DNA from: Methanomicrobia archaeon
GTDB lineage: Archaea > Halobacteriota > Bog-38 > Methanoflorentales > Methanoflorentaceae
Reading direction: 5' to 3'
NCBI GenBank assembly: GCA_015660915.1
Contig: JACTTZ010000003.1
Coordinates: 4,479 to 68,478 of the forward strand
DNA length: 64,000 nucleotides
Part shown: piece after piece, positions 1 to 59,488 of the stretch
Position numbering within the stretch: position 1 is the first letter of the stretch
Layout of the letters: each line of letters starts with the position of its first letter
Translations under genes and position numbers: made by a program
Notes under the pieces: generated by a model
What the model saw: only the letters and a program-made list of their open reading frames with translations
What the model was told of the DNA's origin: nothing
Databases searched by the model: none

Positions 1-35
1 TTCATCCTCAATACAAAACCTACTGTACACGGGGT

Positions 36-1403
36 TTGTGGCCGCCCGATATAACCCCTTACATAGAGTTTGATGAATCAAAAAAACAGATTTCACTGAA
101 ATATCTTCACAGTCCTTTTGACATACATATAAACAAGATATGGAAAGCCCGAATCGATGCAAACTATGAAAGCCCTTCAGTGTATGATTGGCAGAAACAG
201 TGGCACAACATCCGAAATAAGTCTCAATTGCTAACATCTGAGTATATAGAAGCATTTGAAGCGTTGATACTTCAAGACCAAAAAAGATTTAAGAGAAAAG
301 CAAATAAGATCGCGAAGCTCACAGAAGCGATTATTTCCTTTTTAGATGCGGACAGAGAATTTCCGACCAAAATTAATACCGCAATTGACTCAGAAAAGTT
401 CGAAAAAGAACTCAAGGACATCTCGGACTGGGCATCTTTTTGGCGCAGGTTTATCACCCAGCAGCCAACGTCAAGTCAAAATCAGATTAGCTATTTTGAT
501 AGACTTAAATTTGCCATCCAAGACACTTGCAGAGCACTGTTGAGTATGCAAATTGCTTACGACAAAATAGTAGAAGCAACCTTCTCTTACTTCAACGTTT
601 CACGTCTCAAAAATCAGGAAAGAGAGACTTACAACTATTTGTTAAAGATCGTAACTTTTCTTGCCCTAGAACCTGACAAAATAGGTAACATAGCCGCTCC
701 TAAATCAGCGATAAATCAATGGTGGGCTCAGCTGGATAAAAAACGAATTGAAAAGATTAGCGATGTTCTCAACCATCTTGAAAAAGAGCTTCATATGGAA
801 TTTATTAGGCCCTGTTATACAGTTCAACGAGGCGGTCTTCGAGAAACTGCGCTGGGCATGAAGGGGAAAAAATTAGAGCAATTTGATGAAGTTTTTCTCA
901 CGTCTTTGATACAAGGTTTGAGTGATTTAGCTGAAATCGAAATTGATCAGTATTTACTTATGTTCATTGATGATCATAACCGCGTGCAACGGTTTGACGC
1001 GATTTTGCTAACTAAAAGCTGTTTAAGCCACGTAAAAGAATTTAAAGGAACAGCGAAAGAATTCGAATGGGATAATTACAACAAGCCGCGTTTTGTTCCT
1101 TTTCAAGAAGACACGTTACGGTCTCTTCCTGAGGTCACATTCAAAATTGATCCAAGTCTGTTGTTGATGAGGAACATTGTGGTTAATATCTGGCATATAA
1201 CAGAAGTGCGCAGAAGGTTATCTCCAAATGTAGAAGTAGAATCCGCGTGGATGAAAGAATTAGTAGACATTCTTCGTTTGGAATTAAACGACTTTTTAGC
1301 CTCCTTAAAAGCTGAAACTTCCCAAGAAACGTGGAAAGCATACAACGATCTAGTAGAAGCTGTCCTTAGCGGAGATGAATCTTATACATCAGGCTTATTC
1401 TAA
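36..1403 (+). CDS. hypothetical protein on AT-rich island cargo; may start upstream of the window
   Basis: 455-aa ORF with no recognisable catalytic motif. Lys/Glu/Ile-rich and markedly AT-rich compared with core genes. Lies outside (left of) the partial tRNA att-like fragment. Confidence 0.4.
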   Translation: MWPPDITPYIEFDESKKQISLKYLHSPFDIHINKIWKARIDANYESPSVYDWQKQWHNIRNKSQLLTSEYIEAFEALILQDQKRFKRKANKIAKLTEAIISFLDADREFPTKINTAIDSEKFEKELKDISDWASFWRRFITQQPTSSQNQISYFDRLKFAIQDTCRALLSMQIAYDKIVEATFSYFNVSRLKNQERETYNYLLKIVTFLALEPDKIGNIAAPKSAINQWWAQLDKKRIEKISDVLNHLEKELHMEFIRPCYTVQRGGLRETALGMKGKKLEQFDEVFLTSLIQGLSDLAEIEIDQYLLMFIDDHNRVQRFDAILLTKSCLSHVKEFKGTAKEFEWDNYNKPRFVPFQEDTLRSLPEVTFKIDPSLLLMRNIVVNIWHITEVRRRLSPNVEVESAWMKELVDILRLELNDFLASLKAETSQETWKAYNDLVEAVLSGDESYTSGLF

Positions 1404-1603
1404 CAATCTCGTCACTATACACAACTTCGATTTTCTTATTGTGGCCGTATCAACATCGAACTTGCGCTGCTATAGTCGGACTCTATTATGTCTTCGAACG
1501 CACTGTCAACGTTAAACTCAAGAGCGACGCTCTAGCTATGTTTTGCAAGACGTCGGAAAAAGCTGAAGATCGAAAGAGAATGTGATTTGGGGTTATAGCT
1601 CGG

Positions 1604-1921
1604 TTAAACGATACCTTTGCAGACGCACCAGATCTCTCTATCTCTAAATTTAGTAGGGTCGAAAGGCTGAGTATCGTGAGTCAAATCGACTCTTTGAAAG
1701 GTGCTTGAGAAAAGCCTTCGAGCCGTTGAGTATTTTCGTTGCGCATACGGATCGGTGTATTTGCCCAGCAGATAATCACGCAGCGCAATCATATTGTCTT
1801 TGCAAAGCTGGCCGCGCGTCAAGTTCCAAAAAGTCTCCGTACACTTATTCATCCACGGAATTGAAGCCTTGCCGATCCTAGCCACACGAAATGCTCTGTA
1901 ACTTTCCAGCTCTTCTTGCAA
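1604..1921 (-). CDS. hypothetical protein; possibly a remnant of an integrase N-terminal (SAM-like core-binding) domain
   Basis: 105-aa ORF next to the tRNA 3' fragment. Weak resemblance (ALRDYL...STARRLF) to N-terminal helices of tyrosine recombinases. Speculative. Confidence 0.2.
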   Translation of the reverse strand: MQEELESYRAFRVARIGKASIPWMNKCTETFWNLTRGQLCKDNMIALRDYLLGKYTDPYAQRKYSTARRLFSSTFQRVDLTHDTQPFDPTKFRDREIWCVCKGIV

Positions 1922-2056
1922 TATTCAAGGGTAATTAAAGCGAGGTTGTTGGATTCGTTTGAGTTGTTTCTGCCTGAAGATTGTAATGGAGATTCCGACT
2001 TTTATTCAGTTTGCAGACTTGCGTAAAAGAAGCTATTTTTGGGCTTTATATCAAAA

Positions 2057-2108
2057 TTAGCGCCCTGTGGAGGCCACGACGCGGGTTCGAATCTCGCCCT
2101 CGGCCTTT
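2057..2108 (+). repeat. partial tRNA gene, 3' half only (variable region + T-arm GCGGG-TTCGAAT-CTCGC + acceptor 3' strand); probable att site of an integrated element
   Basis: Canonical T-stem/T-loop (GGTTCGAATC) followed by an acceptor 3' strand. No matching 5' acceptor (GCCGAGG) or D-arm within about 100 nt upstream. Confidence 0.5.
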
Positions 2109-2912
2109 GATTTTCTGTTTTCGTTAGAGCTATTAGCTTCGTTTGAAAGAAGAAATGATTTTAGTTCGCTAATCTCCGATTCCAATCTATTAAGCCGCTT
2201 AGTCATCTGATTTTGTTCAAGATTTGCACAAAATTTGCCAACGTGGTCGCCAACAGTAATCGCAAACGCAGGTTCTCCTCCAAGTTCCGTTTTGTAAATG
2301 TTGGCTGTCTTTCCGATTAGTCCTTTGAATTCACGTGGAAGTCGGATCACCGGATATGCGTGAGATGGGGTTGCGCTGTGGGCGCCTATCTTGTGCGTGC
2401 AGATCGGTTGCATACATAGCAGAACGCGCCAAACGTGCATAATTATTGTGATTCGCCGCAGTGCGTTTCAAGGGCTTTTTGCAGCATACCTCGTGCTTTC
2501 GCCACCACGCTTCCGAACGGGCCTCAGAAATCAAAGGAAATCGAAAAAAGAGATAACGGCCTAGGAGATAAGGAATGGGCGATAGGAACACGCTATCAGG
2601 CTATAATCTCTAAGAATGCCCCAATGGTTAACCACGACCAAATAATAATAAAAAAATCACAAAGATTATTGTTCCCCAAAATTGACGTACCGCATATGAA
2701 TCTGCGGCTCTTCGTGATTCGAGAAGTCCTGTCACAGCTACCACTAAAAACTCGCATAGCACAGAAAGAATAAGCATAAAGCTGATAGCACGCGCCATGC
2801 CGGTGCTGACGCCGACGAAACCCGCTTACTCTGGTCTAATGAGCCGCCAAATGCACGTACGCCCTACCTTTGTATTGCTACCGATGGTGTCTACTTTTTA
2901 GCGTACTCCCCA

Positions 2913-5723
2913 GTGATTGCGGACGCGACACTCAAAAACGTCACCCAAGATGATGTCGTCCTCAAAACAATCGAAAAAACGGACTGGACAGAGCTGACGT
3001 CGTCTGAAGTTTGTTACTGGCTTGATCGATATTTTCTTCGCCGCCAAGTCCTACCAGTGACAAGTGAACGCGTAATCCACGATTTCGGCACAAAGAGCCA
3101 CGCTTTTCAGACGACAACAAATCTCCTCGCTGCGCTTTGGCAAGAAGTTGAGTCACAGAGTGTCTATCAGGTAATATACAGCAACTGGGAAAAGTACCTT
3201 CGAATAGTTTACGGGAGTGACGTTTCGGATCAACAACTCTTCATTCGGCACACCTACTTGGCAACACTGGCGAAGCTAATGTCGTGGATGCGTATTAGTG
3301 AAAGTGTAAGCCTGCCACATAGCGATGAAATAATCGAAATACTAGAGGGAAGATTTTTCAGAGTCTATGGGATTGACAACTTTTTAGAAGAGGACTTTTT
3401 TTCGTGGCTTACTCACAAAGAAGCTTCAAAAATAGGCGTTAATGCTGTACGCTGGCTGTTTAGCCTGCTGCAGAACTACAATTTGCACGACTTGTCAGAG
3501 GACGTGCTAAAGACATTATATCAAGAATTGGTAGACCCAGAAACGCGGCACGACCTTGGCGAGTTTTATACGCCAGATTGGTTAGCACATCGCATTGTGA
3601 CGAAACTACTTGATGAGAAACCGGACGGGGCCCTCCTTGATCCTGCATGCGGGTCGGGCACTTTTCTTTATCTCGCCATCAGGGAAAAGCGTGAATGGAT
3701 GTCCGATTCTCCTAAAACCCTGCAACACGTATTAGAGTCGGTATATGGAGCAGATATACACCCTCTTGCCGTGATAATTGCTAAAACAAACTATGTCTTA
3801 GCACTAGGCGATCTGCTGAAAAAGCGAAAAAGCACGATTACAATACCCGTTTATCTGGCAGATACAATTCACTTACCTGAATGGGAAACGCAGCATAAAT
3901 TATCAATGGAGTTCTCGAGCTACCGTGTCGAACTAGATGGAGAAAAAATACGACTGCCCGAACCGCTACTTCAAGACCTCACTCTCTACGATCACGCAAT
4001 TGAGCTGGTAAAGGATTTCGCTGAACAGAATAAGGGCAAAGACGTCGAATCTGGACTTTTTCACAATTTTTTAGAGAAACGACATTTCCCAAAAATAGAC
4101 AATGAAATTCTAGTTGAAGCCCTCTTTGATATGGCGACTATCTTAAAACACTTTATCGAAGCGAACCGTGACACGATATGGGCATATATCCTCAAAAACG
4201 CCTATAAACCATTGTTTTTTATGCAAACGTTCGATTTCGTTGTGGGCAATCCGCCGTGGATAGTGTTACGAACCGCAGAGCCTGCGTATCAAGAGTTCTT
4301 AAAACAACAGGTGATGAAGGAGTACAGATTGTTAACCAAACGCGCAGAGCTGATAACCCATCTGGAAGTAGCCGCTCTTTTTTTAGCAAGAGCGGCAGAT
4401 TTGTATTTGAGACCCAGTGGAAAAATAGCCTTTGTAATTACGAGGAGCATATTTAGCAGCGATCAGCACGACGAACTGCGAAGAGGTACCTTCAGATTAA
4501 GCAATGACCCCGAACAACATCTAGCCTTTCAAGAAGTATGGGATTGTGAAGCAGTTACGCCGCTTTTTAATATCCCTGCATGCGTATTAATCGCAGAAAA
4601 AGGCCAAAATCAAACTCTTTATCCAATCAAAGGGCAAATATTAACTGGAAAACTAAGCCAAAAAAATATGTCACTACAGAGCGCGGCAAAAGAACTGCAC
4701 GTTGAAGATACGCGAATATCACTATGTTTTACTGGGACACGCTCTTTCTGGTCTACTCTTGACTGCAAAGAAAAGAAAGCGGTTAGTCCGTACAAAACGA
4801 AATTCATGCAAGGTGCCACAATCATACCTCGCTCTTCATGGATTGTCGAACCTAGCTCACAAAAATATGGATTTGATGAGTTTCGCCCTATGGTAGAAAC
4901 TGCAGGTTATGCCGTAAAGAAAGCAAAAAAGCCGTATAAGGACTTATTTATAAAAGGCAATATTGAAAGTGACTTCCTTTATACTACACTTTATTCGGAA
5001 GATCTGATTCCTTTTGGACATTTTGACTATCGTTTGACCGTTCTACCCGTTGAACCACAGGCAGATCAATACAAACTTGTTGAATCGGAAGAGGCGCGCT
5101 TGCGCGGGTATTCTGACCTAGCACAATGGGTGGAACGCGCAGAAAAAGAATGGACAAAACGGGGCAGTTCAAAAGTGGGGCGAATGAATGCATTGGAACG
5201 GCTAGATTATCGCCACGGGCTGACAAAACAAAATCCCCAAGCACGGTGGCGAGTAATCTACAACACTTCTGGCACTTATTTAACGGCCGCGGTTATTCAA
5301 AGTGCAGAAGTTAAGAACATATTAGGAGAGAACGACACTAGTACAAAAGGATTTGTTGCAGATCACAAAGTCTACTTTTTCGATCTAAACAACAGAAGCG
5401 AAGCATTTTACTTAGCGTCGATTTTGAATGCACCCATCATCGATAGGCTTATAAAGCCAATGCAGAGCCGAGGGTCGTGGGGGCCGCGAGACATTCACAA
5501 AAAAGTTTTTGAGCTTCCTATCCCGCAATTTGACGCCACGAACGCCGAACATCGCAAGTTGAGCGAATTAGGTGAAGGATGTACGGACAAAGTGCAGAAC
5601 TGGGTGTTAAGCGGAGGAAAAGGAAAAATCAAAAGTATAGGAAAGTTACGCTCAATAGTTCGTGAGATGCTGCAAGAAGAACTAAATGAAATCAATCCGA
5701 TTGTTGTGAGAATTTTGCAGTAG
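2913..5723 (+). CDS. gamma-class N6-adenine DNA methyltransferase, type IIG/IIL-like large single-chain R-M/BREX-PglX-like protein
   Basis: Motifs in order GEFYTP (motif X), LDPACGSGTFL (motif I, AdoMet binding), NPPW (motif IV), followed by a C-terminal region of about 480 aa, presumed TRD. The N-terminal 220 aa have no obvious PD-(D/E)xK nuclease motif. Confidence 0.65.
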   Translation: MIADATLKNVTQDDVVLKTIEKTDWTELTSSEVCYWLDRYFLRRQVLPVTSERVIHDFGTKSHAFQTTTNLLAALWQEVESQSVYQVIYSNWEKYLRIVYGSDVSDQQLFIRHTYLATLAKLMSWMRISESVSLPHSDEIIEILEGRFFRVYGIDNFLEEDFFSWLTHKEASKIGVNAVRWLFSLLQNYNLHDLSEDVLKTLYQELVDPETRHDLGEFYTPDWLAHRIVTKLLDEKPDGALLDPACGSGTFLYLAIREKREWMSDSPKTLQHVLESVYGADIHPLAVIIAKTNYVLALGDLLKKRKSTITIPVYLADTIHLPEWETQHKLSMEFSSYRVELDGEKIRLPEPLLQDLTLYDHAIELVKDFAEQNKGKDVESGLFHNFLEKRHFPKIDNEILVEALFDMATILKHFIEANRDTIWAYILKNAYKPLFFMQTFDFVVGNPPWIVLRTAEPAYQEFLKQQVMKEYRLLTKRAELITHLEVAALFLARAADLYLRPSGKIAFVITRSIFSSDQHDELRRGTFRLSNDPEQHLAFQEVWDCEAVTPLFNIPACVLIAEKGQNQTLYPIKGQILTGKLSQKNMSLQSAAKELHVEDTRISLCFTGTRSFWSTLDCKEKKAVSPYKTKFMQGATIIPRSSWIVEPSSQKYGFDEFRPMVETAGYAVKKAKKPYKDLFIKGNIESDFLYTTLYSEDLIPFGHFDYRLTVLPVEPQADQYKLVESEEARLRGYSDLAQWVERAEKEWTKRGSSKVGRMNALERLDYRHGLTKQNPQARWRVIYNTSGTYLTAAVIQSAEVKNILGENDTSTKGFVADHKVYFFDLNNRSEAFYLASILNAPIIDRLIKPMQSRGSWGPRDIHKKVFELPIPQFDATNAEHRKLSELGEGCTDKVQNWVLSGGKGKIKSIGKLRSIVREMLQEELNEINPIVVRILQ

Positions 5724-5873
5724 TACTCTAGTGACGCGATGCAATAAGATGACGATCATTGGCTGGAATCTCGATGATCGCGTTCCATTTGAGGAGCAAA
5801 AGGAGTTTTTATCCTGTTTTTCATAAACACTTTGGAACAAGCGATTGAACTTGATCCGAGACTTAAGTAGAGC

Positions 5874-6785
5874 CTACTCTTCGGTGAAGAAATCAGAATC
5901 GACTTGTTTTATTTCGTATTCGACGACCTTTGACACCCCGATGCCGTGATCGATCATAAGCTGTGCCAACATATCTCCATTGATAAGAACAACCTTATCC
6001 TCTATTTGCGAGGCATAGTCCGTTGCTTCACGTGAAAAATCAGCCGTAGTAATGAATACGCCTCTGCGTGCGCGCTGACCGTGGAGCGCCCCAACGAACT
6101 TCTGAATCTCCGGTCTGCCGACCGTCGCTTCCCACCTCTTAGCTTGCACGTAGACCACGCCTAACCCCAATGGGTCTTCCTTGATAATGCCATCTATCCC
6201 TTCGTCGCCGCTCTTGCCTAGCGCCTGTCCGGCATCTTTGATTGAGCCGCCATACCCCATCTCAACAAGTAGTTTAACCACTAGTCTCTCAAAAAAGCTA
6301 GGAGAACAGACTTTCAGTTTATCGAGCAGCTCTCTAGCCAAGTTCAGCCTCAGCTCCTGATAGGCATTTTCCATCACCTCAACGGGCGTCTGATCAGGGA
6401 CTTTTGCAGATTCGGCTTCGCCTTCTGTTCTATCTTCTTTTTTCCGCTGCAAGAACCCCACGAATCGCGGATATTGCTTTAAAAACTTGACGTCTATTGT
6501 CTTGGGACTCGCCTTAAGCGCATTTACGCCGTCTTCCGTTATTTTAAAAAAAGAGCGCCTCGTAGAGTCGACCAGCCCTGCTTTTTTTAAGTAAAACAAC
6601 CCCCATCGGACTCTGTTATCAAAAACTTGCTCGTAGCCGCTTGGCAATAGTTCTCTCCTTTCCTGAGTTGATACTTCAAAAACCGAAGCGACGTAGTCGT
6701 ATGCGTCGCTTATCGCGTGCTCTTCCTCATCAGAAGCGTATTGTAAGAGTGGGAGCATTGCTTGTTGGTATTTGGGAATAGCCAT
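5874..6785 (-). CDS. mrr: Mrr-like type IV (modification-dependent) restriction endonuclease
   Basis: N-terminal Mrr_N winged helix (AIPKYQQAMLPLLQ...) plus C-terminal Mrr_cat-like region (GIDGII...VYVQAKRW). Likely true start at the internal Met MAIPKY preceded by GAGGTG. The ORF-track start at 6917 adds a 44-aa Arg-rich extension. Confidence 0.65.
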   Translation of the reverse strand: MAIPKYQQAMLPLLQYASDEEEHAISDAYDYVASVFEVSTQERRELLPSGYEQVFDNRVRWGLFYLKKAGLVDSTRRSFFKITEDGVNALKASPKTIDVKFLKQYPRFVGFLQRKKEDRTEGEAESAKVPDQTPVEVMENAYQELRLNLARELLDKLKVCSPSFFERLVVKLLVEMGYGGSIKDAGQALGKSGDEGIDGIIKEDPLGLGVVYVQAKRWEATVGRPEIQKFVGALHGQRARRGVFITTADFSREATDYASQIEDKVVLINGDMLAQLMIDHGIGVSKVVEYEIKQVDSDFFTEE

Positions 6786-6959
6786 AGCACCTCTTCTCAA
6801 ACATCGTCTCGAAGTATTCTCTGTTCGATATCTCCTAGCTAGATGCAGTAAAACCGTGCGACTGTTAAGACCCCTCAAACTCACAGATTTATTGTGGCGG
6901 TTCTTAAATCGCCGCAAACCAGTTGCTTAGCTGACTTGCTCAGTCTTCTTTGCTTACGT

Positions 6960-7430
6960 TTATTTTTTTTGGCTTGTTTTTTTAGCTTGTGAGATTATCC
7001 GATCGTAATCGCTTTGCGGAATCTGAACCACAGCTTTACCTCTAATAGGGCCAGTCCAGTATGTCTTGTTCGGTAAGAAAGAAAGTCTCAGTATTAAAGG
7101 CTTAAAATCGATGGGTGGTTCAAATACCCTTACAGCTTCCAACCGTAATCTCAACGGAAAAGTTTCATTTGGCGTATTCGGAGGTGTAACGAACAGCTTC
7201 TTGCTGTCTTCGAAGACTGTTGAAGCGATCTCATATTGTGCAACTATCTTCGGTCTTAACGTTTCGCCTGCGCTAATTTCACCTTTCACATAAACTAAGC
7301 ATTGGTCGCCTTTCTTTACTCTGGAGAGCGCATTCTTGTATCGTGCAGAAGCCCCGAGAATATTTGTCTTCTTTGTGATTGTCCAGTTGTCAGAGTTTGT
7401 TACATAGATCCAGTAAGCCATAGCCATCAA
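6960..7430 (-). CDS. EVE (PUA-like) domain protein, putative modified-base reader
   Basis: Starts AYWIYVTNSDNW...; size about 150 aa; PUA-like beta-barrel signature typical of EVE/ASCH proteins. Sits directly beside Mrr. Confidence 0.5.
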   Translation of the reverse strand: MMAMAYWIYVTNSDNWTITKKTNILGASARYKNALSRVKKGDQCLVYVKGEISAGETLRPKIVAQYEIASTVFEDSKKLFVTPPNTPNETFPLRLRLEAVRVFEPPIDFKPLILRLSFLPNKTYWTGPIRGKAVVQIPQSDYDRIISQAKKTSQKK

Positions 7431-8203: not shown

Positions 8204-8449
8204 TCAAGGAGGGCAGCACATAATCGATCTTCTGACGCGGCGAATCTTAATATACCCTGACCGAGCCAATCTGTGAACCCTGTAGTAGAGTTCCTGATAG
8301 GCGGTGTCATAGAACTCTTTGTTGAGATCGGCAAGCGGTACGCACTCTAGATTGTGACCAATAGAAAGCCCCAGAGTGAAACGGGATCTCCTGCAAATCC
8401 GAGCTATGATTTGCTCATCGAGTTCATTGATTTTGTTTTTGTTATTCAC
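8204..8449 (-). CDS. hypothetical small protein (overlaps the primase-helicase start)
   Basis: 81-aa ORF with an 8-nt overlap with the upstream gene, suggesting an operon. Confidence 0.3.
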   Translation of the reverse strand: MNNKNKINELDEQIIARICRRSRFTLGLSIGHNLECVPLADLNKEFYDTAYQELYYRVHRLARSGYIKIRRVRRSIMCCPP

Positions 8450-10580
8450 TTTCGTCCCCTTCTAACAAGAGCGGTTTTCCGCCGGTTAGTTTCAAAAAGA
8501 TCGATGCTGCCGGGCCATTTCCGTTCACGAGCTCGCTGAAGCGGCGCTCGAGGATAATGCGCGACTGTCTATCATCGGCCGAGATGTTATTTTCTTCACA
8601 ATACATCGCGACTGTGAAATTGCAGAGATATTCCGGATCGCGGGGTTCCTTGTAATCGCCATCGGCCAACCATCCGAGCCTTTCGCTTACGTAGCCGTCG
8701 AAGTGTGCCTCCCGGTCGTGGTCGTCTGGTACATGCTTACCACGCGAGCAGTCGGCTATGAGCGTCTGCACTTCCGGATCAGTCTCGGCTAACTTTTTAT
8801 AGAACTGCTCGACGGGGTAGTCGCGCAACCAAGGCTTATCTGCCTTAATGGTCTTGCTCAATTCGGCAGCAAACTCGTTAGTTGTCATGTCGATGGGCCC
8901 AGACCGCGCCTTCTTGAACCCGTTTAGTATCTGCTTGACGTCTTCGACGAGTTCTTTTTCATGTTTTTCACGCTCGCCATTCACCTGAGGGCCTGAAGGC
9001 AATGAACCCATTTTGACTAACTTTTCATGATACCCCTCAGCCGTCATGTAACGAATGTCAAAACCACCTTCATAGCCTTCAGCATTCAGCTCAGCCTTCA
9101 GCGGTGCGGCAACCTCATCGTCATACTCGCCAATATCCCGTAACCGAATCCCTGCCCGCAGATTGCCGCTTTCTTTATGTATGCTCTTAAATCCGAGTTT
9201 CGTAAGATATGAGTAAAAACTCGTCGGCGTCGAGACGTTATGACGCTCCTCGGCGGTCGCGACGTTTCGAAATCGCTCATACAAGGCTTTAGACGTCGAT
9301 TCGGCGCCCGCTTCGACTATGCACTCACTCTCGATAAACGCGGCGAGCGGATTCATAGATTTTTGGTAGTCTTTCCGCGCAGCGTTGACCGAATCCGGCG
9401 GCATAAGGCCGTAGTCTTGCCAATCATAGCACCCCTGCACTAACCACGCAAAAATAGCCTTCTGCGCGTTCTCATCCTCTAAGAGAAATTCTTTGATTTT
9501 CGGGTCGCACTCCTCGAGAGCGATCGGGTTTAAGAACTGCACGATAAAGAACCGATTAAACGACGCATCATCGTCGAAGTCTAATTTCGGCAAGAAATTC
9601 GTCTCGATATAGAATTTTGTGCGCGGATCTATCTTGCGCTGCCTTTTTTCAAACAGGCCTCGGGCACTCTGCGGGTTCCCGCTCGTAACAGCCTTGAGAA
9701 ACGAATCATTGAAGACCATACCCCGAGGCACTTCGCTACACTGCGCGGCACGCACGCCCTCGAGACTAACAAGGTCTGCCCGCGCTCCTCCGGGTTTTTG
9801 TATCGCCTTTGCGAATGTCGATATGTTGACCGGGGCAGCATAATCGCCTAGGGTTTTAAAGATCGCATCTAAAAGCGTTGACTTACGTGCGTTCGCTTCA
9901 CCGTAGAGAACGAACAGGGCCTTGTCTCGATTGATCGCTGTCAATCCTGACCCACAAGCCCGCTGTAAAAACGCGCCTTGCTCGAGTGACAACACTTCGA
10001 TAAGCCGTTCGTACCATTCCGAGCTTACCGTCTCGGGTTCATAGGGCACGGCTGCTATTTTGGTTACCAAGTCGTTGCGATCCGGGTCGCGCAATTCCCG
10101 CGCATTTAAGTCAAGGGTTCCGTTTTGACAGTTGATGAGCCAAGGGTTGGCGTCAAAGTCTTTCGCCATGACTGCGATGCGCGGGTCTGACTGTGCAAGT
10201 TGAATCATCGCGTTTATGCGAAAATTGGAATCACTCTGATACGCCCAGTTCGTCAACCGCTTTTGTGCCGCTTTCCGTTCTTTCGGATCATCCTCATCGA
10301 TGAAACTCGCCTCTGCGTGTATGAGTTTGACCGTTTTTTTGGCCAGTTCTCGAATTTTGAGTGTGACGTCTCGAGGCCATCGCGAGTCATCCCATATGAA
10401 CCACTCACCAATTTCAGCGCAATAACGGATATCATCACCGTACAGAGCAATAAGTCGAAGCGCATTGCCGCCGTCTGTCAAAGGATAACCACACACTACC
10501 CGCACGTCGTTATGTGTGCTGGTTTTGAGGTCAAGCTCAGACAATGTATGCTCACGTATCCCGGGTTGTGATCCGCTCAC
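8442..10580 (-). CDS. plasmid/virus-type replication protein: primase-like N-terminal domain plus D5/SF3-helicase-like NTPase (P4/COG3378 family)
   Basis: N-terminal LTDGGNALRL motif (P4-type primase family). Central Walker-A-like YGEANARKSTLLD with downstream D5_N-like region. 712 aa, typical of MGE primase-helicases. Confidence 0.6.
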   Translation of the reverse strand: MSGSQPGIREHTLSELDLKTSTHNDVRVVCGYPLTDGGNALRLIALYGDDIRYCAEIGEWFIWDDSRWPRDVTLKIRELAKKTVKLIHAEASFIDEDDPKERKAAQKRLTNWAYQSDSNFRINAMIQLAQSDPRIAVMAKDFDANPWLINCQNGTLDLNARELRDPDRNDLVTKIAAVPYEPETVSSEWYERLIEVLSLEQGAFLQRACGSGLTAINRDKALFVLYGEANARKSTLLDAIFKTLGDYAAPVNISTFAKAIQKPGGARADLVSLEGVRAAQCSEVPRGMVFNDSFLKAVTSGNPQSARGLFEKRQRKIDPRTKFYIETNFLPKLDFDDDASFNRFFIVQFLNPIALEECDPKIKEFLLEDENAQKAIFAWLVQGCYDWQDYGLMPPDSVNAARKDYQKSMNPLAAFIESECIVEAGAESTSKALYERFRNVATAEERHNVSTPTSFYSYLTKLGFKSIHKESGNLRAGIRLRDIGEYDDEVAAPLKAELNAEGYEGGFDIRYMTAEGYHEKLVKMGSLPSGPQVNGEREKHEKELVEDVKQILNGFKKARSGPIDMTTNEFAAELSKTIKADKPWLRDYPVEQFYKKLAETDPEVQTLIADCSRGKHVPDDHDREAHFDGYVSERLGWLADGDYKEPRDPEYLCNFTVAMYCEENNISADDRQSRIILERRFSELVNGNGPAASIFLKLTGGKPLLLEGDESE

Positions 10581-11119
10581 GAACGACCTCCGTCGTCGCC
10601 GTCGCCCGAGAGCGAACTCGACTGAGGGTCGTTGCCAAAGCCCAGCAGCTTTCGGAGTTCTTGCATCTCCTTTGCTTTCGTATACTCCACATCAATCGCG
10701 CGCACTTGCGCTATGGTCTCATCAGCGTCTTGGTCACCGAGCGGCTTACGTCGTTGGATCCTGCGGAACAGCGCTAAAAGCAGCCATAACGGTACTTCGT
10801 CAGCGTAGCAATCGTTACGCCACTCAGCCCCAGCGCCGTCTTGATAGTTGATTAGGGCCCGTTCATCGCCGCGTTCAGTCAAATACCAGCTCACATTCTT
10901 ATGCTGCGTGCCAAAGCTCTCGCGCACTCCCTGACGCACGAATATCTGATATTCGTAGAGCAAGTGCTCTGCCGCGTCGTATAGGTCGTTGGACAGCGTG
11001 GCCGTCTCGCCACGTCTCAGCTCTGTCGTGACTTCCTTTAAGCTTCTGTGTGTCTCGCTCTCGTAGTCATCGGCGGGCGTGACATAGCCGCGATTCGGGT
11101 CAAAATATGAACTCGTCAT
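10577..11119 (-). CDS. hypothetical protein
   Basis: ORF translationally coupled (ATGA overlap) to a duplicated 3'-end remnant. Likely ATG start at MTSSYFDP. Confidence 0.35.
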   Translation of the reverse strand: MTSSYFDPNRGYVTPADDYESETHRSLKEVTTELRRGETATLSNDLYDAAEHLLYEYQIFVRQGVRESFGTQHKNVSWYLTERGDERALINYQDGAGAEWRNDCYADEVPLWLLLALFRRIQRRKPLGDQDADETIAQVRAIDVEYTKAKEMQELRKLLGFGNDPQSSSLSGDGDDGGRS

Positions 11120-11169
11120 GCCCTCGCCTCCCACAACCGCTCCATTCTGAATATGAAGCTGTCTAGGTC
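11117..11169. repeat. about 53-bp direct repeat copy 1 (gene-junction cassette: 3' end ...F(I/F)(F/G)RMERLWEAR(A/S)* + ATGA start overlap)
   Basis: About 90% identical to 12004-12055. Confidence 0.8.
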
Positions 11170-11183
11170 GTCGTGAATGTCGG

Positions 11184-12005
11184 TCATGCTCGATGCTCCC
11201 CGTTCGCTATTGCCCATAATTTTTCTCTGTCAACACGTTCAGCCCGAAGTACGCCATAAAAAACAGACGTGTCGTAAAACTCGAAAAGAGCAGCTTCGTA
11301 AAGCTCCCGGAGTGTATAAGGAGGAAGGGCGTCGAGTTCCACCTGCATGAGCTGACCGTAGTCTCGAATGAAGCCGGCTGCACGTGAATCGCCTTTTTTA
11401 CCCGGGTTTACCGGTAAATTATATTCACTTACCTGATCCTCATTGAGCGCAATGCGTTGCACATGGTCAAAGCAGCTGCACCGCTTTTTGAAGTCTCTCA
11501 ATATGTCGACGCCGCTCGGATCGAAATCACCAGCATAAATGAGCACGGCTTGACGGTCATTGTTCGTAACATCCTCGATGATCACATCGACATACGTTTG
11601 CGACGAGTACCCACGAAGCGGGGCGATCGCAACACCGTATGTTTCAAACCACTGCTTCAACTGCGGCACCATGCCGTACTTTTCAACGCCGAGATAGACC
11701 GAGTACTCCTGCCTTTCATCGCGGTTACGGCAGTAGCTCCTAGTGAGCGATTTCAAAGCATCTTGCGGGCTACTGAATCCGCCAAAGCGGTGAATATCGC
11801 GTGTCTGGTCAACTAGCTGCGGAAACTGTCCGTTTCGACGAAGAGCCGCGGTGACCCTACTGAGTCTTTTATACGCGTACTCACTGTTCGGTATCGCGCC
11901 TTCAACGACCAAGCGATAGAACAGTTGTCGGAGAGAGACGCCGGTGTCATAAGAACGCACTATTTCAGCAGCTCGGGTGATGACGCGAGGCCATGAAATG
12001 CTCAT
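11184..12005 (-). CDS. Spo11/Topo VI-A-like 'Mini-A'-type protein (winged helix with Tyr + Toprim)
   Basis: wH motif SLRQLFYRLV (5Y-CAP-like R..Y). Toprim glutamate LGVEKYGMV and DxD motif IYAGDFDPSGVDI. 273 aa, shorter than Topo VI-A. Confidence 0.45.
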   Translation of the reverse strand: MSISWPRVITRAAEIVRSYDTGVSLRQLFYRLVVEGAIPNSEYAYKRLSRVTAALRRNGQFPQLVDQTRDIHRFGGFSSPQDALKSLTRSYCRNRDERQEYSVYLGVEKYGMVPQLKQWFETYGVAIAPLRGYSSQTYVDVIIEDVTNNDRQAVLIYAGDFDPSGVDILRDFKKRCSCFDHVQRIALNEDQVSEYNLPVNPGKKGDSRAAGFIRDYGQLMQVELDALPPYTLRELYEAALFEFYDTSVFYGVLRAERVDREKLWAIANGEHRA

Positions 12006-12226
12006 GACCTCGCCTCCCACAACCGCTCCATTCTGCCTATGAAGCTTTCTAGGTCATAAACGAAGGGTGCTAGTACGAGGTGGTATTCGTCGTCTTCGGT
12101 TTCGACGCGTTCAAGCTCGTAACACAGGTCGCCGTAGAGCTCCTGTGCCCCTATCAAAATCAAAAGAGGGCGCTCTGCATCAAAGCGCTTATCAAAGCGC
12201 AGCCCGTCACTGCTCACCGCGTGCAC
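12002..12226 (-). CDS. hypothetical small protein
   Basis: 74-aa ORF; its stop overlaps the downstream start (ATGA). Its last 16 codons are duplicated at 11120-11170. Confidence 0.35.
   Translation of the reverse strand: MHAVSSDGLRFDKRFDAERPLLILIGAQELYGDLCYELERVETEDDEYHLVLAPFVYDLESFIGRMERLWEARS
12004..12055. repeat. direct repeat copy 2 (see 11117-11169)
   Basis: Covers the 3' end of gene 12002-12226 and the start of 11184-12005. Confidence 0.8.
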
Positions 12227-12714
12227 GAGAAACCTCCGTGTGTCTCTTTTGGAGTCTTAGTCGCCAATGGCACATCGGCTTCCATGTTCTTGCGCTCAGA
12301 ACCACGGCACGTTATTGCGCCTCTACTTCGCCCAGCGAATGGTATACAGCTTCTGTCAAGGTCACGCGGCAATGAGCAAAGGCAGTTAGGTACGCCTTTG
12401 ACCTTCTTTTGGGGATCGGTCAACTTCATGCGTTTGCATGAACGATCCGGATTAAAACTGCGTTCAAAGTCTAAGGGACTCTTTTCAGACTCATCCGGCT
12501 GAAGCCTCATTAGAGGAGCCGGCAAGTTTTTCGAAATTTTGTTTCTTCTAAACATGTTTCTCACTCCAAAAAGCCCAATAAATGGAGAGAGAAACGACCT
12601 TATTTCAAGCGGATATTCTTTATAAAAAGAAACCGCAATTACGTACTACCTAATCTAATCAATTAGGTATGGAGAAACAAGGAATGAGAGGATAGATCGG
12701 GATCTACTCTTACC

Positions 12715-12785: not shown

Positions 12786-13418
12786 CTACGGGTTCGCATT
12801 CTCTGTCGGTCGACGTGTCTTATGCAATGAGAACTCCACAGCCACCGAATCTTCTGCACCTTTCCGAGGCTTTTCCCCACGCTCCACCCGATCAAAAAGT
12901 GCCATAATGTCGCCGTCTTGATCCTTGTAAAGCACCCACACATATGTTAGTGACAAGGGTTCATCGATCGGAAGGCCATCCTCCACCTTCTGAACCGTCG
13001 CAATCCATTTTGAAACGACAGAATTGCAGACATAGCACCAGCTTGATCCAGATTTTAATTGGCTGTACGAAAAACCGATAAGGGGGTCGCTGCTGTGAAT
13101 ACCGTCAGCTTGTACACTAAGACCGAGGCTCTTAGCCACGTCGTCAGCGTGGAGAGAATCCCATACGATTCTGATGAACCTGATGGTAGATTTCCGCACA
13201 GGCCAACGCATAGGATCATGTGTAAGCACCCAAAAAGCAACGATTTCGCCGACCGAATACTCAGGCCAATTGCTTGGCCCGCCTCGACCTTTTCCTTCGC
13301 TCTTGTGGTAACGACGAGGCGCGGTAATGACCCCTTCGTGGGCAAGCTTTCTGATTGTGCTGGAAGCTAAACCAACTCCGTATTTGTGTAAATGAGCCTG
13401 AAGTTCGTCGACTTGCAC
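12786..13418 (-). CDS. hypothetical protein with N-terminal HTH-like segment
   Basis: LASSTIRKLAHEGVI helix-turn-helix-like stretch; the rest is unknown. Confidence 0.3.
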   Translation of the reverse strand: MQVDELQAHLHKYGVGLASSTIRKLAHEGVITAPRRYHKSEGKGRGGPSNWPEYSVGEIVAFWVLTHDPMRWPVRKSTIRFIRIVWDSLHADDVAKSLGLSVQADGIHSSDPLIGFSYSQLKSGSSWCYVCNSVVSKWIATVQKVEDGLPIDEPLSLTYVWVLYKDQDGDIMALFDRVERGEKPRKGAEDSVAVEFSLHKTRRPTENANP

Positions 13419-13836: not shown

Positions 13837-15393
13837 TCATCCTTGTCGCTGCTGTTTTTCTCTAAATGCCTGCACAAGTTTGGCTGAGCGTTCCCTGTCG
13901 CCTTTAATTGCTTCTTGCGACACCGCCTTAGCAGGCTCTATTACGTTTTTGTTTATCGATTTGACCAGATCGGCCGTATCTTCATACCAATAGGTATCGA
14001 GAATCATCGTTTCAAGTTTCTTTCGCAAGCCAATCAGCACCATATGCTCTCCCTTCGCTTTTTCTGAGGCGACTCGGATGGGCAGTATAGGCACAGCAGC
14101 GCCCGTATCAGCGATGTGTTGCACCTCGATAGGCACCATCTCAGGGTCAGTAAAGTCAGCGATAACGAACTGCGCCATACGTGCAAGAGTAGATACTGTT
14201 TCGATAAACGTTTGGCTCTCCGGTTTTTCAAAGTCGAATACTACAGGCACATAGTCATGATGACGAAGTTCGTCTCGGACTGCGTCGAGCGTCGGCTTTT
14301 GCTCATCAGTGAAGCGGCCGAGGAGAAGCACGACTTTTGAGGTCATAATATCAATAACATTTCGCAGCTTTTCGTATTTCGTTAGCAAATAGATGAACTG
14401 CGCGACCTCAAGGTCGTCAACGGTGATCACGGGCTCTCGTTCGTATATATTGCTGATGTTCAAGTTTGACTGATCTTTTGGCTTACCTTGAAGGTTCCAC
14501 ACCGAGCTACCGTACACGGCACATCCAGCAAAAATGGCATCCGCGATGGTCGTTTCTACAAAAATTGCCCTCGTGAGATTGGCGTCTGAAAGGTCGGTAC
14601 CTGTCAGATCCGCATTTGAAAGATCGGCAGAATAGAGGGTAGCGTGAGAGAGGTTAGCGTGGGAGAGGACGGCTTTGTAGAGGTGGGCTTCTCGCAAGGT
14701 GGCGCCAGAGAGGTTGGCGTCGGTGAGCTTGGCCTTATAGAGGTGGGCGCGGGTGAGGTCGGCTAACGAGAGGTCGGCGCCCCTCAGATCCGCATTTGAA
14801 AGATATGCGTCGACAAGAATAGCGCCAGAGAGGTTAGCGCCGGAGAGGTGGGCAAAGGAGAGGTGGGCCTCGCTGAGATTAGGCCTCACCTCAGAGTACT
14901 TATCACGCCAACTGTTCCACTCGTCAACGCCTTGTTTCAGAATTTCAAGGTGCGATTCATTTGCCGTAGAAGATCTCACTGCGAGCGTCAGGCCGGCGTC
15001 GGTGAGGTCTGCACCCGTCAGATCCGCATTTGTAATGTTAGCGTTAGAGAGGTCGGCGCCGCTGAGGTCGGCGTTAGAGAGGTCGGCGCCAGAGAGCTCG
15101 GCGTTAGAGAGGTCGGCGCCAGAGAGGTCGGCGCCAGAGAGGTTAGCGTCGGTGAGCTCGGCGTGGGAGAGGTTAGCGCCAGAGAGGTTAGCGCCAGAGA
15201 GGTCGGCGTCGGTGAGGTCGGCGTAGAAGAGGTCGGCTCCGATGAGGTTGGCTTCGTAGAGGTCGGCTTCTGGGAGGTGGGCGCCGCTAAGATCGGGCCT
15301 CACGTCATGGTACTCTTCACGCCAACTGTTCCAGACTTTAAAGCCTTGCTTTAGGATTTCGAGATGTGATTCATTGACCATCGAAGATCTCAC
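13837..15393 (-). CDS. pentapeptide-repeat protein with duplicated N-terminal module and a C-terminal non-repeat alpha/beta domain
   Basis: Long runs of A(D/N)LSGA(N/D)L pentapeptides. Two copies of the module ESHLEILKQG..WNSWR..Y.(D/E)VRP(D/N)LS.AHL. The C-terminal 190 aa are non-repetitive (KVVLLLGRFTDEQ...VPVVFDFEKPE...FVIADFTDPE). Confidence 0.7.
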   Translation of the reverse strand: MRSSMVNESHLEILKQGFKVWNSWREEYHDVRPDLSGAHLPEADLYEANLIGADLFYADLTDADLSGANLSGANLSHAELTDANLSGADLSGADLSNAELSGADLSNADLSGADLSNANITNADLTGADLTDAGLTLAVRSSTANESHLEILKQGVDEWNSWRDKYSEVRPNLSEAHLSFAHLSGANLSGAILVDAYLSNADLRGADLSLADLTRAHLYKAKLTDANLSGATLREAHLYKAVLSHANLSHATLYSADLSNADLTGTDLSDANLTRAIFVETTIADAIFAGCAVYGSSVWNLQGKPKDQSNLNISNIYEREPVITVDDLEVAQFIYLLTKYEKLRNVIDIMTSKVVLLLGRFTDEQKPTLDAVRDELRHHDYVPVVFDFEKPESQTFIETVSTLARMAQFVIADFTDPEMVPIEVQHIADTGAAVPILPIRVASEKAKGEHMVLIGLRKKLETMILDTYWYEDTADLVKSINKNVIEPAKAVSQEAIKGDRERSAKLVQAFREKQQRQG

Positions 15394-24189: not shown

Positions 24190-24444
24190 GTAAATTGACT
24201 CCTATAACGAGCAAGAATGCGAAGCCCGTCGCAGCACCGGCTTACAAGAAGAGCGGGGCGTACTTCGTTTCGTTACGTACATCTGTCCCGCGAGCCATAT
24301 ATAGCTTACCTCGCTCCGCTTGGCCACAAACGCGCTAAAAAGTTTTTAAATGAAGCGCTCACTATATCCATTGTCGAGCGACCGGCCGCAAGACGCGTGG
24401 TCCTCTTTAGCTTTTTGTCCGTGTGGAGGCGGAGATATGCCAAT

Positions 24445-25677
24445 ATGAGCGACTCAATCGAATCACTGAAGCGCTACGAGTTTAAGCGCGTCATCGAGAC
24501 CCTCGAAGGCAAAAAAGGACAGGCGACCGAACTCATTACCATCTATATCCCGCCTGACAAACAGATCTCTGACGTTGTAAGCCAGCTGCGCGACGAATAC
24601 GGCCAGGCGTCCAACATCAAATCGAAGAGCACGCGCACCAACGTGCAGAGCGCACTCTCATCGATCACGTCGCGCCTTAAGTACTATCGCTTCCCGCCGT
24701 CCAATGGCCTTGTGATCTTTACGGGGACGATCTCGCTCGGAGGTGACAAGACGACCATGGAAACGCTCGTCGTGGAACCCATTGAACCGATCAAGTCGTA
24801 CCAGTACCGGTGCGACTCGACCTTCAACCTCGAGCCGCTCAAGGAGATGCTCAAAGAAAAGGAGGTATTCGGACTCGTCGTGCTCGACCGAAACGAGGCA
24901 ACGGTCGGCATCCTCAACGGCAAGCGTATTGAGCCGATCAAGCATCTCACATCCGGAGTCCCCGGCAAGCACACAAAGGGCGGCCAATCGCAGCGCCGTT
25001 TCGAACGGCTGCGCCTCATCGCGATCCACGAGTTCTACAAGCGCATCGGTGAGGCTGCCAACAACGAGTTTCTGCAGCATCCCGAACTCAAGGGCGTACT
25101 TATCGGTGGCCCGAGCCCGACCAAAGAAGAGTTCGTCGACGGCGAGTACCTCCACCACGAGCTGCAGCAACGGATTCTGGGGGCATTTGACGCGTCCTAT
25201 ACCGACGAGTTCGGCCTTTCAGAGCTCGTCGAAAACGGCGCTGAGGTGCTACAAGAGCTCGATTTGATGCGCGAAAAGAACGTCGTGGAGCGCTTCCTCA
25301 AAGAGCTCGTGCACGACTCAAACAAGGCGACCTACGGTGAGAGACAGGTGCGAAAAGCGCTCCAGCTAGGCGCCGTTGACACACTCCTCCTCTCAGAGGC
25401 ACTTCGCATCCAGCGCGTGACCAATAGCTGCCCGCTGTGCGGGTTCACGCTCGAAGAGACGATCCGCGGCATAAAGGGGGTGGGTGTATGTCCCAAGTGT
25501 GAGGGCGCTATGGAACGCGTGCACGAAGAAGACGTCGTCGATGAACTTATCCGCCGGGCCGGAGACACGGGAACCTCGGTGGAATTCATCTCAACCGACT
25601 TCAATGAGGGCGAGCAGCTTATGCGAGCATTTGGCGGCATTGCGGCCATCCTTCGCTTTGCGATCGACGAGCACTGA
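24445..25677 (+). CDS. prf1: peptide chain release factor aRF1
   Basis: eRF1 domain order; NIKS-like (SNIKSKSTR) and GGQ motifs. Likely start at MSDSIESLKRYEF. Confidence 0.85.
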   Translation: MSDSIESLKRYEFKRVIETLEGKKGQATELITIYIPPDKQISDVVSQLRDEYGQASNIKSKSTRTNVQSALSSITSRLKYYRFPPSNGLVIFTGTISLGGDKTTMETLVVEPIEPIKSYQYRCDSTFNLEPLKEMLKEKEVFGLVVLDRNEATVGILNGKRIEPIKHLTSGVPGKHTKGGQSQRRFERLRLIAIHEFYKRIGEAANNEFLQHPELKGVLIGGPSPTKEEFVDGEYLHHELQQRILGAFDASYTDEFGLSELVENGAEVLQELDLMREKNVVERFLKELVHDSNKATYGERQVRKALQLGAVDTLLLSEALRIQRVTNSCPLCGFTLEETIRGIKGVGVCPKCEGAMERVHEEDVVDELIRRAGDTGTSVEFISTDFNEGEQLMRAFGGIAAILRFAIDEH

Positions 25678-52387: not shown

Positions 52388-52471
52388 TGCACCGACCGGG
52401 ATTCGAACCCGGGTTGTGGGCTTTCTTCACGCGTTGGAAGGCCCAAGTCATAACCGCTAGACCATCGGTGC
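52388..52471 (-). tRNA. tRNA-Gly(UCC) with a 12-nt intron 3' of the anticodon
   Basis: Manual fold: acceptor GCACCGA/TCGGTGC, anticodon arm TGGGC-CUUCCAA-GCCCA, T-arm CCGGG-TTCGAAT-CCCGG. TATA-like ATTAATATA about 30 nt upstream. Confidence 0.7.
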
Positions 52472-59066: not shown

Positions 59067-59372
59067 CAAAATGTGTGGAGATGCGAACATCAGAGAAGTT
59101 GAAGCAATTCGGTTTTTCGCTTTTCATAGGCCTCGCTAGTGATAAAACCTTTCTCACGTAACACATCGAGCTTTTCTATTTGCTCGATTATGTCCTCTTT
59201 CATGCTTTGATGCTTCTCTTCGTTAGCCATCGTGTTTCGGATAGCCTTTATGAACGATAAACTTTATGTATTTTCACACGTAATAATATATTCTTTTTTG
59301 CTTGCACCCTTCACGTAGACGTTAACCCAAGAAGTGGTACACGCGTAGCGTGTAAAAGCAGTACTTTGAACA

Positions 59373-59468
59373 AGCCGCCGGAGGGATTTGAACCCTCGAT
59401 CTGCTGATACTTCTTTGAGCGGTGCTCAAATACGAATCAGCCGCTATGCCGAGCTTAGCCACGGCGGC
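59373..59468 (-). tRNA. tRNA-Thr(CGU) with a 22-nt intron (hairpin UUUGAGC...GCUCAAA) after position 37
   Basis: Manual fold: acceptor GCCGCCG/CGGCGGC, D-stem GCTA/TAGC, anticodon stem GCTGA/TCAGC with loop UUCGUAA, T-arm GAGGG-TTCAAAT-CCCTC. Confidence 0.6.
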
Positions 59469-59488
59469 CACGCATAGTATGTTTAGAC

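Follow-up and report, generated by a model that had tools for sequence, protein, structure and literature searches.

Duplicated gene junction flanking a Topo mini-A gene as a probable insertion scar in the replication operon of an archaeal provirus remnant

A 64,000-nucleotide (nt) stretch of a Methanomicrobia archaeon genome (GenBank assembly GCA_015660915.1, contig JACTTZ010000003.1, positions 4,479 to 68,478; hereafter, the window) carries part of a replication operon of a provirus or other mobile genetic element (MGE), in which the gene for a standalone homolog of the topoisomerase VI (Topo VI) A subunit, Topo mini-A (here, Mini-A), is flanked by two copies of one gene junction. We favor, with a probability of roughly 0.78, the interpretation that this repeat is the scar of an insertion of Mini-A between two genes, here termed geneX and gene180, in a common ancestor of the window element and a related element (L009), that the two junction copies were later homogenized in the window lineage, and that the orphan geneX end now serves within a short relay open reading frame (ORF). 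All of the genes at the locus lie on the minus strand, in the order 116-aa (amino acid) ORF, geneX, Mini-A, 23-codon ORF, gene180, and D5_N helicase gene, and they are joined in a chain of stop/start overlaps (geneX-ATGA-Mini-A-ATGA-23-codon ORF-ATGA-gene180-GTGA-helicase). The features of the locus, in the direction of transcription, are as follows.

12214..12564, minus strand: 116-aa ORF, the first gene of the overlapping operon, with a 13-nt overlap with geneX; 113 aa in metagenome annotations
12002..12226, minus strand: geneX, 74 aa, from a small family normally found immediately 5' of gene180; aligned with its counterparts in L004, L007, L008, L009, and L016
12002..12055, minus strand: junction copy A, comprising the final 17 codons of geneX with a GGGAGG Shine-Dalgarno (SD)-like motif and the ATGA overlap with Mini-A
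11184..12005, minus strand: Topo mini-A, 273 aa, a standalone Topo VI A subunit homolog and the inserted gene
11184-11187, minus strand: ATGA overlap, the Mini-A stop with the ATG of the 23-codon ORF
11116..11187, minus strand: 23-codon ORF, MTDIHD followed by DLDSFIFRMERLWEARA (whole peptide, MTDIHDDLDSFIFRMERLWEARA), a 6-codon linker plus an orphan geneX 3' end
11116..11169, minus strand: junction copy B, comprising the orphaned final 17 codons of a geneX with GGGAGG and the ATGA overlap with gene180
11116-11119, minus strand: ATGA overlap, the stop of the 23-codon ORF with the start of gene180
10577..11119, minus strand: gene180, 180 aa, with its stop overlapping the helicase start (GTGA)
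8442..10580, minus strand: D5_N/SF3-type replicative helicase, 712 aa, "primase" in PHROGs

A repeat search identified a 63-nt direct repeat (11107-11169 and 11993-12055; 89% identity; spacing of 886 nt) around Mini-A, which is the only long repeat within 9.5 to 13.5 kb of the window. The homologous part comprises 54 nt (11116-11169 and 12002-12055), identical at 50 positions; the additional 9 nt belong to the opening codons of two genes that are unrelated to each other, and their similarity appears to be due to chance. On the minus strand, both copies encode D-L-(E/D)-S-F-I-(G/F)-R-M-E-R-L-W-E-A-R-(S/A) followed by a stop, hold the GGGAGG motif, and end in the ATGA that combines the stop of a small ORF with the start of the next gene. 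An earlier sequence-only reading of this DNA had reported a sequence of about 53 bp at 11117-11169 and 12004-12055, with the last 16 codons of the upstream small gene, an ATGA stop/start overlap, and a GGAGG ribosome binding site (RBS) in each copy; that description was borne out apart from the codon count, which is 17. The 28-nt exact core of the repeat, CCTCGCCTCCCACAACCGCTCCATTCTG, occurs twice in the window, with zero further matches at up to 3 mismatches and 0 occurrences expected by chance (100 shuffles). Exact matches to the 16-nt RBS/ATGA part of the repeat are likewise confined to the two junction copies, and this part is therefore no generic motif of the genome, which is the explanation that the same reading had named as the one that could undo its proposal. 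The 2.1-kb locus is 100% identical across eight independently assembled metagenome contigs, which rules out an assembly artifact as the source of the repeat.

The default arrangement of these genes was determined from approximately 29 distinct gene180 loci in elements of uncultured Halobacteriota/Methanomicrobia. There are 77 detectable relatives of gene180 (P0001 to P0077), which occur in Methanomicrobia and Halobacteriota metagenome-assembled genomes and in peat metagenomes. The conserved core consists of gene180 followed by the D5_N helicase gene: in 22 fetched loci, a gene180-type protein of about 170 aa is encoded directly 5' of the helicase, and in the remaining loci, the downstream gene had no N-terminal helicase match or the contig ended first. 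The AlphaFold2 model of gene180 is confident (predicted local distance difference test [pLDDT] score of 82) and had no fold match in the PDB, and two relatives, P0026 and P0029 (253 to 262 aa), carry a fused N-terminal helix-turn-helix domain; the protein may be an uncharacterized replication accessory factor. A gene180 profile scan of viral contigs gave no match. The geneX family, which has the conserved central core ADxxDxEYCLLLSN, was recovered through synteny rather than through a word-index homolog search, which returned only geneX itself. Pfam and PHROG searches with the 116-aa ORF gave no match.

The relatives show what the junction looks like without Mini-A. Four of them (L004, L007, L008, and L016) have a full-length geneX-type gene that shares a 4-nt overlap (ATGA or GTGA) with gene180, with no Mini-A between the two; these include the closest relative of the window gene180 (L004; 80% aa identity). 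The geneX-type proteins end in ...ADDLYSFISGIERLQEGRV and ...ALDDFTSRTERLQEGGV, each directly before the stop, in L004 and L007, respectively, and contain ...DDTADFVFRMDL... in L008 and ...AIDGFRFRGGE... in L016. Among the approximately 29 loci, tblastn placed Mini-A 5' of gene180 in just two, the window element and L009, and a second junction copy was detected only in these same two elements (z = 31 and z = 8.8, respectively; z of 3.1 or lower at all of the other loci). Insert and duplication therefore co-occur perfectly and are lineage specific. The proposal, made from the sequence alone, that a Mini-A-like gene had been inserted between two translationally coupled genes with duplication of the junction is thus supported by the comparison that it had itself called for, of homologous islands with and without Mini-A.

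L009 is a 3.6-kb contig with a Mini-A that is 78% identical to that of the window in protein sequence. Its gene order is geneX (70 aa), GTGA, Mini-A, GTGA, VTDMRHDLDGFMSGMGRLQEAGV and stop, ATGA, and gene180, and its breakpoints are those of the window: the (A/G)TG of the short ORF overlaps the Mini-A stop in both elements, the Mini-A 3' end and 6-codon linker match at 30 of 36 nt, and similarity to geneX starts at the same GACCTAG. On these alignments, the insertion would most parsimoniously be a single ancestral event common to both elements.

Exact look-ups in the metagenome collection returned about 100 blocks for Mini-A, 109 for gene180, and 53 for geneX, and every one of the longest 24 contigs per protein had the same arrangement as the window; no Mini-A-less (repeat-recombined) allele of the window element was present among them. 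Neither a donor locus nor an empty-site allele of the same element was found in the contigs examined, all of which carry Mini-A. A scan of the genome collection with Mini-A alone gave no match.

Repeats at the flanks do not characterize Mini-A genes in general. In a survey of 23 Mini-A loci from many backbones (L058 was not scorable), only the window and L009 had a Mini-A-flanking repeat, and such repeats were absent from the 20 usable loci of other backbones. A 17-nt direct repeat was observed in L011 (GCAACCCAAAGAGACGC and GCAACTCAAAGAGACGC; z = 6.3; ~2845-2861 and ~3988-4004), about 180 nt 5' and 130 nt 3' of Mini-A and away from the gene ends, and is possibly due to chance.

Comparison of the two copies with the relatives indicates which one is original. 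Copy B matches the single L004 junction at 46 of 58 positions, matches L009 copy B at 46 of 58 positions, and runs on into gene180; since it matches the L004 junction and continues into gene180, copy B represents the original geneX 3' end of the resident element. The L009 geneX body is identical to that of L004 at 33 of the 36 nt just 5' of the junction and at 64% of amino acids overall, and the geneX body 5' of copy A is likewise of the resident type. The layout is a complete geneX, followed by Mini-A with its linker and a repeated geneX tail.

The numbers of differences among the junction copies are as follows.

Window copy A versus window copy B: 4 of 54
L009 copy A versus L009 copy B: 16 of 54
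Window copy B versus L009 copy B: 11 of 54
Window copy A versus L009 copy A: 20 of 54

Independent divergence since a shared insertion would be expected to produce about 15 differences within an element, a number that fits L009 and does not fit the window. The window copies also share derived states (TGG for Trp; GCG AGG) that are missing from L004, L007, and L009. The shared derived states together with the shortage of differences indicate that the window copies became homogenized in the lineage of the window, either through gene conversion or through an excision followed by reinsertion via the repeat. At three of the four sites that differ between the window copies, copy B has the L004-like state, which lends weak support to a conversion from B to A. 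The near-identity of the window copies is thus the product of later homogenization rather than of a recent insertion, and the insertion itself is old.

The genes around the junction seem to differ in their histories. Over its first 78 codons, the window gene180 is closer to that of L004 (81% aa identity; synonymous divergence [dS] of 0.57) than to that of L009 (67%; dS of 1.17), and the dS between the window and L009 Mini-A genes is 0.62. In geneX, L004 groups with L009, and the window protein is 46% identical to that of L004 and 41% identical to that of L009. Fisher tests of the synonymous-site contrasts gave a P value of 0.037 for Mini-A versus gene180 and of 1e-5 for Mini-A versus geneX. 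These contrasts are suggestive of a precise loss of Mini-A from the L004/L007 lineages or of its movement between backbones, either of which requires recombination at or near the junction.

The inserted gene has most of the features of the Topo mini-A proteins, which were defined as standalone proteins of about 300 residues or fewer with Topo VI A homology (the 5Y-CAP domain's second half plus Toprim) (PMC7671362). Markers of the group are an RxxFY-type tyrosine motif, a glutamate plus DxDxxG, and an xWELDAL T2BI box that sets Mini-A apart from Topo VI and Topo VIII (PMC7671362). The window protein matched PHROG 6247, "DNA topoisomerase" (E value of 3.8e-45), and its AlphaFold2 model (pLDDT score of 89.6) had Topo VI-A 1d3y (E value of 1.8e-5; probability of 1.00) and the Methanosarcina mazei Topo VI as its top Foldseek matches. 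In an alignment of 41 sequences, R26-Q-L-F-Y30, the context of the catalytic tyrosine [Rxx(Y/F)Y], was at least 90% conserved, and the Toprim metal-binding residues E108, D160, D162, and G165 (E and then DxDxxG) were invariant. The C-terminal T2BI box reads Q221-V-E-L-D-A-L227, with ELDAL present and V where the signature has W; the 40 closest relatives have the same consensus, QVELDAL rather than xWELDAL. None of the proteins encoded near Mini-A matched GHKL, the Bergerat-fold B subunit. The setting is viral or proviral, with the D5_N helicase and a TerS-like 93-aa protein as neighbors and a large terminase in the relative L004. The gene therefore resembles the Topo mini-A of Takahashi et al. 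2019/2020 (PMC7671362) in being a standalone Topo VI-A homolog of about 270 aa with the RxxFY, E, and DxDxxG motifs, in a provirus-like context and with no B subunit nearby, and it differs in the discriminating box. By its motifs and predicted fold, it would be classed as a Topo mini-A in which the xWELDAL feature is only partly present.

A model for the history of the locus can be proposed from these observations. The element family would consist of proviruses or MGEs of uncultured Halobacteriota (Methanomicrobia-type) archaea, of which the window would hold a replication operon remnant. In that family, geneX would be coupled to gene180 by a 4-nt ATGA overlap, and gene180 to the D5_N helicase gene. 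An ancestor shared by the window element and L009 would then have acquired Mini-A at the geneX/gene180 junction by recombination, and the gene would have brought along ATGA-type ends of its own together with about 6 codons of the sequence that followed it in the donor. That the insert came with coupling-ready ends is indicated by L010 and L011, which have other backbones and in which Mini-A is ATGA coupled on both sides, directly to a primase/helicase gene. Both flanks of Mini-A would thereafter have carried the final 17 codons of geneX, including the SD motif and ATGA. Such a structure would most economically be reached by homology-facilitated illegitimate recombination or by a Campbell-type single-crossover integration of a circle that carried one junction copy; the left join would have formed via homology in the geneX 3' end, and the right join would be an in-frame illegitimate fusion. 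The subsequent homogenization in the window lineage would have produced the 28-nt exact core. Recombination between the present repeats is predicted to give a junction with the geneX-specific 5' sequence GCACCCTTCGTTTATGACCTAGA, a junction segment of about 31 to 34 nt, and the gene180-specific sequence ATGACGAGTTCATATTTTGACCC; the predicted reciprocal circle junction would run from the Mini-A 3' end (...GAGCATGACCGACATTCACGAC) through the junction segment into ATGAGCATTTCATGGCC.

The 23-codon ORF is the orphan geneX end joined in frame to a start codon lying across the Mini-A stop. The sequence-only reading had rightly recognized the copy at 11120-11170 as an orphan 3' end detached from its gene; as part of an in-frame ORF, it is more than dead sequence. 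The ORF is also present in L009 as VTDMRHDLDGFMSGMGRLQEAGV, with GTGA and ATGA at the same places. Between the two elements, it has accumulated 3 synonymous and 13 nonsynonymous changes, with a ratio of nonsynonymous to synonymous divergence (dN/dS) of about 1.1, which indicates that the peptide itself is not under selection. The features kept in both elements are the reading frame, the start over the Mini-A stop, the SD-like GGAGG, and the terminal ATGA. Gene callers annotate a 33-aa version (ATG at 11217) in the metagenome contigs; this ATG is ACG in L009 and so is not conserved. Because the overlaps have been kept, because the Mini-A genes of L010 and L011 are coupled on both sides, and because coupling by termination-reinitiation in Haloferax, as summarized in the abstracts of PMC6728339 and PMC10666635, requires overlaps or very short gaps, the ORF probably acts as a relay of translational coupling to gene180 and the helicase gene. 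Ribosomes leaving Mini-A would reinitiate twice and would still couple the translation of gene180 and the helicase. The junctions of this operon, with -4 overlaps (ATGA/GTGA) and an SD-like GGAGG on the 5' side, have the geometry for which translational coupling has been demonstrated by experiment in Haloferax. Unlike the Haloferax case, the window has a neutrally evolving 23-codon ORF that lies between two real genes and may function purely as a relay, and the two abstracts contain no description of such a use of an intervening short ORF.

Several alternatives were weighed against insertion into the geneX/gene180 junction. It is conceivable, if unlikely, that two geneX-type genes once flanked Mini-A and that the distal one lost its middle, leaving its first 6 and last 17 codons, so that the repeat represents what is left of two paralogs rather than a duplication created by the insertion, the second paralog having been acquired with Mini-A as its own downstream geneX-like gene or having arisen from an earlier tandem duplication of geneX. 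The relay ORF does start with MTDI or VTDM, reminiscent of the MSDL at the start of the gene that follows Mini-A in L066, and an hhalign comparison of this L066 protein with the geneX profile produced a weak match over 25 columns; that match is not significant (E value of 0.034; probability of 1.5%) and does not lie at the C terminus of the protein, and the small ORFs beside Mini-A in L011 and L066 showed no significant homology to geneX. No full-length second geneX was present in the approximately 29 gene180 loci or the 23 Mini-A loci, and copy B, being contiguous with gene180 and orthologous to the single L004 junction, is resident rather than incoming. A role for the 23-aa or 33-aa product as a functional microprotein, that is, a truncated geneX paralog maintained for the activity of its peptide, is extremely improbable: the ORF is open with start and stop overlaps in both elements and its 33-aa form is annotated in metagenome contigs, but it lacks the ADxxDxEYCLLLSN core of the geneX family, the window and L009 versions agree at only 12 of the 23 residues (compared with 78% identity for Mini-A), its dN/dS ratio is that of a neutral sequence, and the start codon of the 33-aa version is not conserved. 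The openness of the ORF was rejected as a sign of selection, since about 62% of neutrally simulated histories with 16 substitutions leave a 23-codon ORF open.

Mobility of Mini-A as an active cassette, with the repeat as an attachment site or target duplication created by site-specific recombination, by transposition, or by cleavage by Mini-A itself, was considered very improbable. Mini-A keeps the catalytic tyrosine and Toprim metal-binding residues of the Spo11/Topo VI-A catalytic core, and its presence does not agree with the trees of gene180 and geneX. However, flanking direct repeats are confined to this lineage, neither terminal inverted repeats nor any integrase or transposase was found in or beside the insert (the sole inverted repeat between 9500 and 13500 sits inside the helicase gene, and no recombinase domain was found among the neighboring proteins), the 54-nt duplication corresponds exactly to a gene 3' end and does not resemble the product of a staggered-cut transposition, and the window element is invariant in all of the contigs read. 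The same evidence qualifies the earlier description of the locus as a footprint of gene-cassette shuffling: recombination is upheld, and dedicated cassette machinery is not, given the lack of terminal inverted repeats, of a recombinase, and of repeats at 20 other loci. A broader version, which is quite improbable, holds that Mini-A genes are ATGA-ended cassettes that hop between archaeal viral replication operons at coupling junctions, perhaps through their own Spo11-like cleavage, and leave neutral relay mini-ORFs behind, with the repeat as a reusable excision and integration site. The probability of a chance match or of a generic RBS or promoter motif is close to nil. The 3' end of the repeat is in part constrained by the SD motif and its spacing, and the last ~15 nt (GAGGCG.G.GCATGA) are similar to the sequence upstream of Mini-A in L010 and L011, two unrelated backbones that likewise encode ...EARA before the stop; nevertheless, the similarity extends far past the SD motif over 17 codons of a recognizable protein family C terminus, and the uniqueness of the core and of the RBS part together with the second-copy scores across loci refutes this explanation.

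The likeness of the L010 and L011 sequences is an observation in its own right. In both (L010, ~4860-4880; L011, ~3025-3042), the small ORF 5' of Mini-A ends in ...EARA with GGAGGCGCG(G/C)GCATGA, which nearly equals 15 nt of the window junction. This could reflect convergence on SD sequence and spacing, or the gene may take a short Mini-A-associated leader along when it moves.

Some points weigh against insertion at the junction followed by homogenization and relay. No sign of present-day recombination at the repeat, in the form of a Mini-A-less variant of the window element, was found among the contigs read. The arrangement is common to one independent relative, the 3.6-kb L009, and the notion of a single ancient event rests on two elements. 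The mosaic argument draws on short segments (78 codons of gene180), with dS values that are partly saturated. The 23-codon peptide shows no purifying selection, and the fact that its ORF has stayed open is statistically uninformative.

Beyond the 712-aa helicase gene, the replication module continues with small ORFs and then the TerS-like 93-aa gene, and it adjoins EVE, Mrr, and type IIG restriction-modification genes; L004 has terminase and structural genes instead. The window element looks like a fixed provirus remnant. Window positions 1-7430 form a low-GC (40 to 46%) block of defense-type genes that adjoins it, with the following contents.

36-1403: C-terminal part of a protein of more than 1,200 aa with nSTAND NTPase and Cap4 nuclease domains, recognized in L001
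2913-5723: type IIG-like N6_Mtase/Eco57I gene, 936 aa
5874-6917: Mrr
6960-7430: EVE-domain protein

The provirus replication module seems to be truncated against this block. On the other side, the 210-aa gene of the element (window positions 12786-13418; compared with L004 positions 2590-3414) has weak homologs (21 to 30% identity) in L004, L014, L019, L021, and L024. In these relatives, the homologs are divergent to gene180, and in the window, the gene is co-oriented with gene180, a difference that points to an inversion, or to another order of modules, on the 5' side of the operon. Just past the 210-aa gene lies a minus-strand gene (13837-15393) for a 518-aa pentapeptide-repeat protein, whose repeat composition gives rise to long antisense ORFs and which stands beside the element in all metagenome copies.

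The window also encodes aRF1 and arginyl-tRNA synthetase, and the exact aRF1 sequence falls into a cluster with proteins from "Halobacteriota archaeon" metagenome-assembled genomes. The mechanically predicted aRF1 ORF (24217-25677) is 486 aa long compared with 410 aa in cluster members, and the true start probably lies about 76 codons downstream. ARAGORN reported two "tRNA-???" genes (52388-52471 and 59372-59469; 84 and 98 nt) with 4-base anticodon loops (tcca and cgta), which may be intron-containing archaeal tRNAs that were misparsed under bacterial settings.

Genomes of tailed phages are mosaics in which boundary or linker sequences occur at lambdoid gene borders and single genes have been inserted as morons. 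The window locus resembles these junctions in that a single accessory gene lies between genes that are adjacent in relatives, in that a short boundary sequence that is a possible substrate for homologous recombination is present on both sides, and in that gene phylogenies on either side are incongruent. It differs from classical morons in that Mini-A has no promoter or terminator of its own and is built into a series of 4-nt stop/start overlaps, and from phage boundary sequences in that the family consists of archaeal (Halobacteriota) proviruses and the duplicated boundary is coding sequence (17 codons plus the SD motif). Homology-facilitated illegitimate recombination and Campbell-type single-crossover integration are established routes of recombination in bacteria. 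As with those routes, one of the joins is in a region of homology (the geneX 3' end), the second is illegitimate, an in-frame fusion, and a direct repeat flanks the insert; in contrast to them, the mechanism at the window locus is inferred from the scar only. The position of the insert between direct repeats is also shared with integron cassettes and with transposon target-site duplications, but the locus has no attC-like structure, integrase, transposase, or terminal inverted repeats, and its repeat is 54 nt of resident coding sequence.

Recombinational gene insertion at the module boundaries of viral genomes is a known kind of event, and the locus resolves one case of it well, in an archaeal provirus family and with Topo mini-A as the cargo. 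Topo mini-A genes are widespread in viruses and MGEs, and phylogenies had already suggested their exchange among archaeal MGEs. Against this background, the window provides a concrete, base-resolved case of Mini-A acquisition; in other respects, the scar is of an ordinary recombinational kind, a neat but rather commonplace instance of viral genome shuffling. The site of entry lies directly 5' of the gene180-helicase pair, on the same side of the replicative helicase/primase as in other backbones, and this position beside replication genes, together with the preserved overlap chain, supports a replication-linked role for Mini-A. The preservation of the chain by an in-frame remnant ORF makes the locus a simple case, provided by nature, in which relay-type translational coupling could be examined in archaea.

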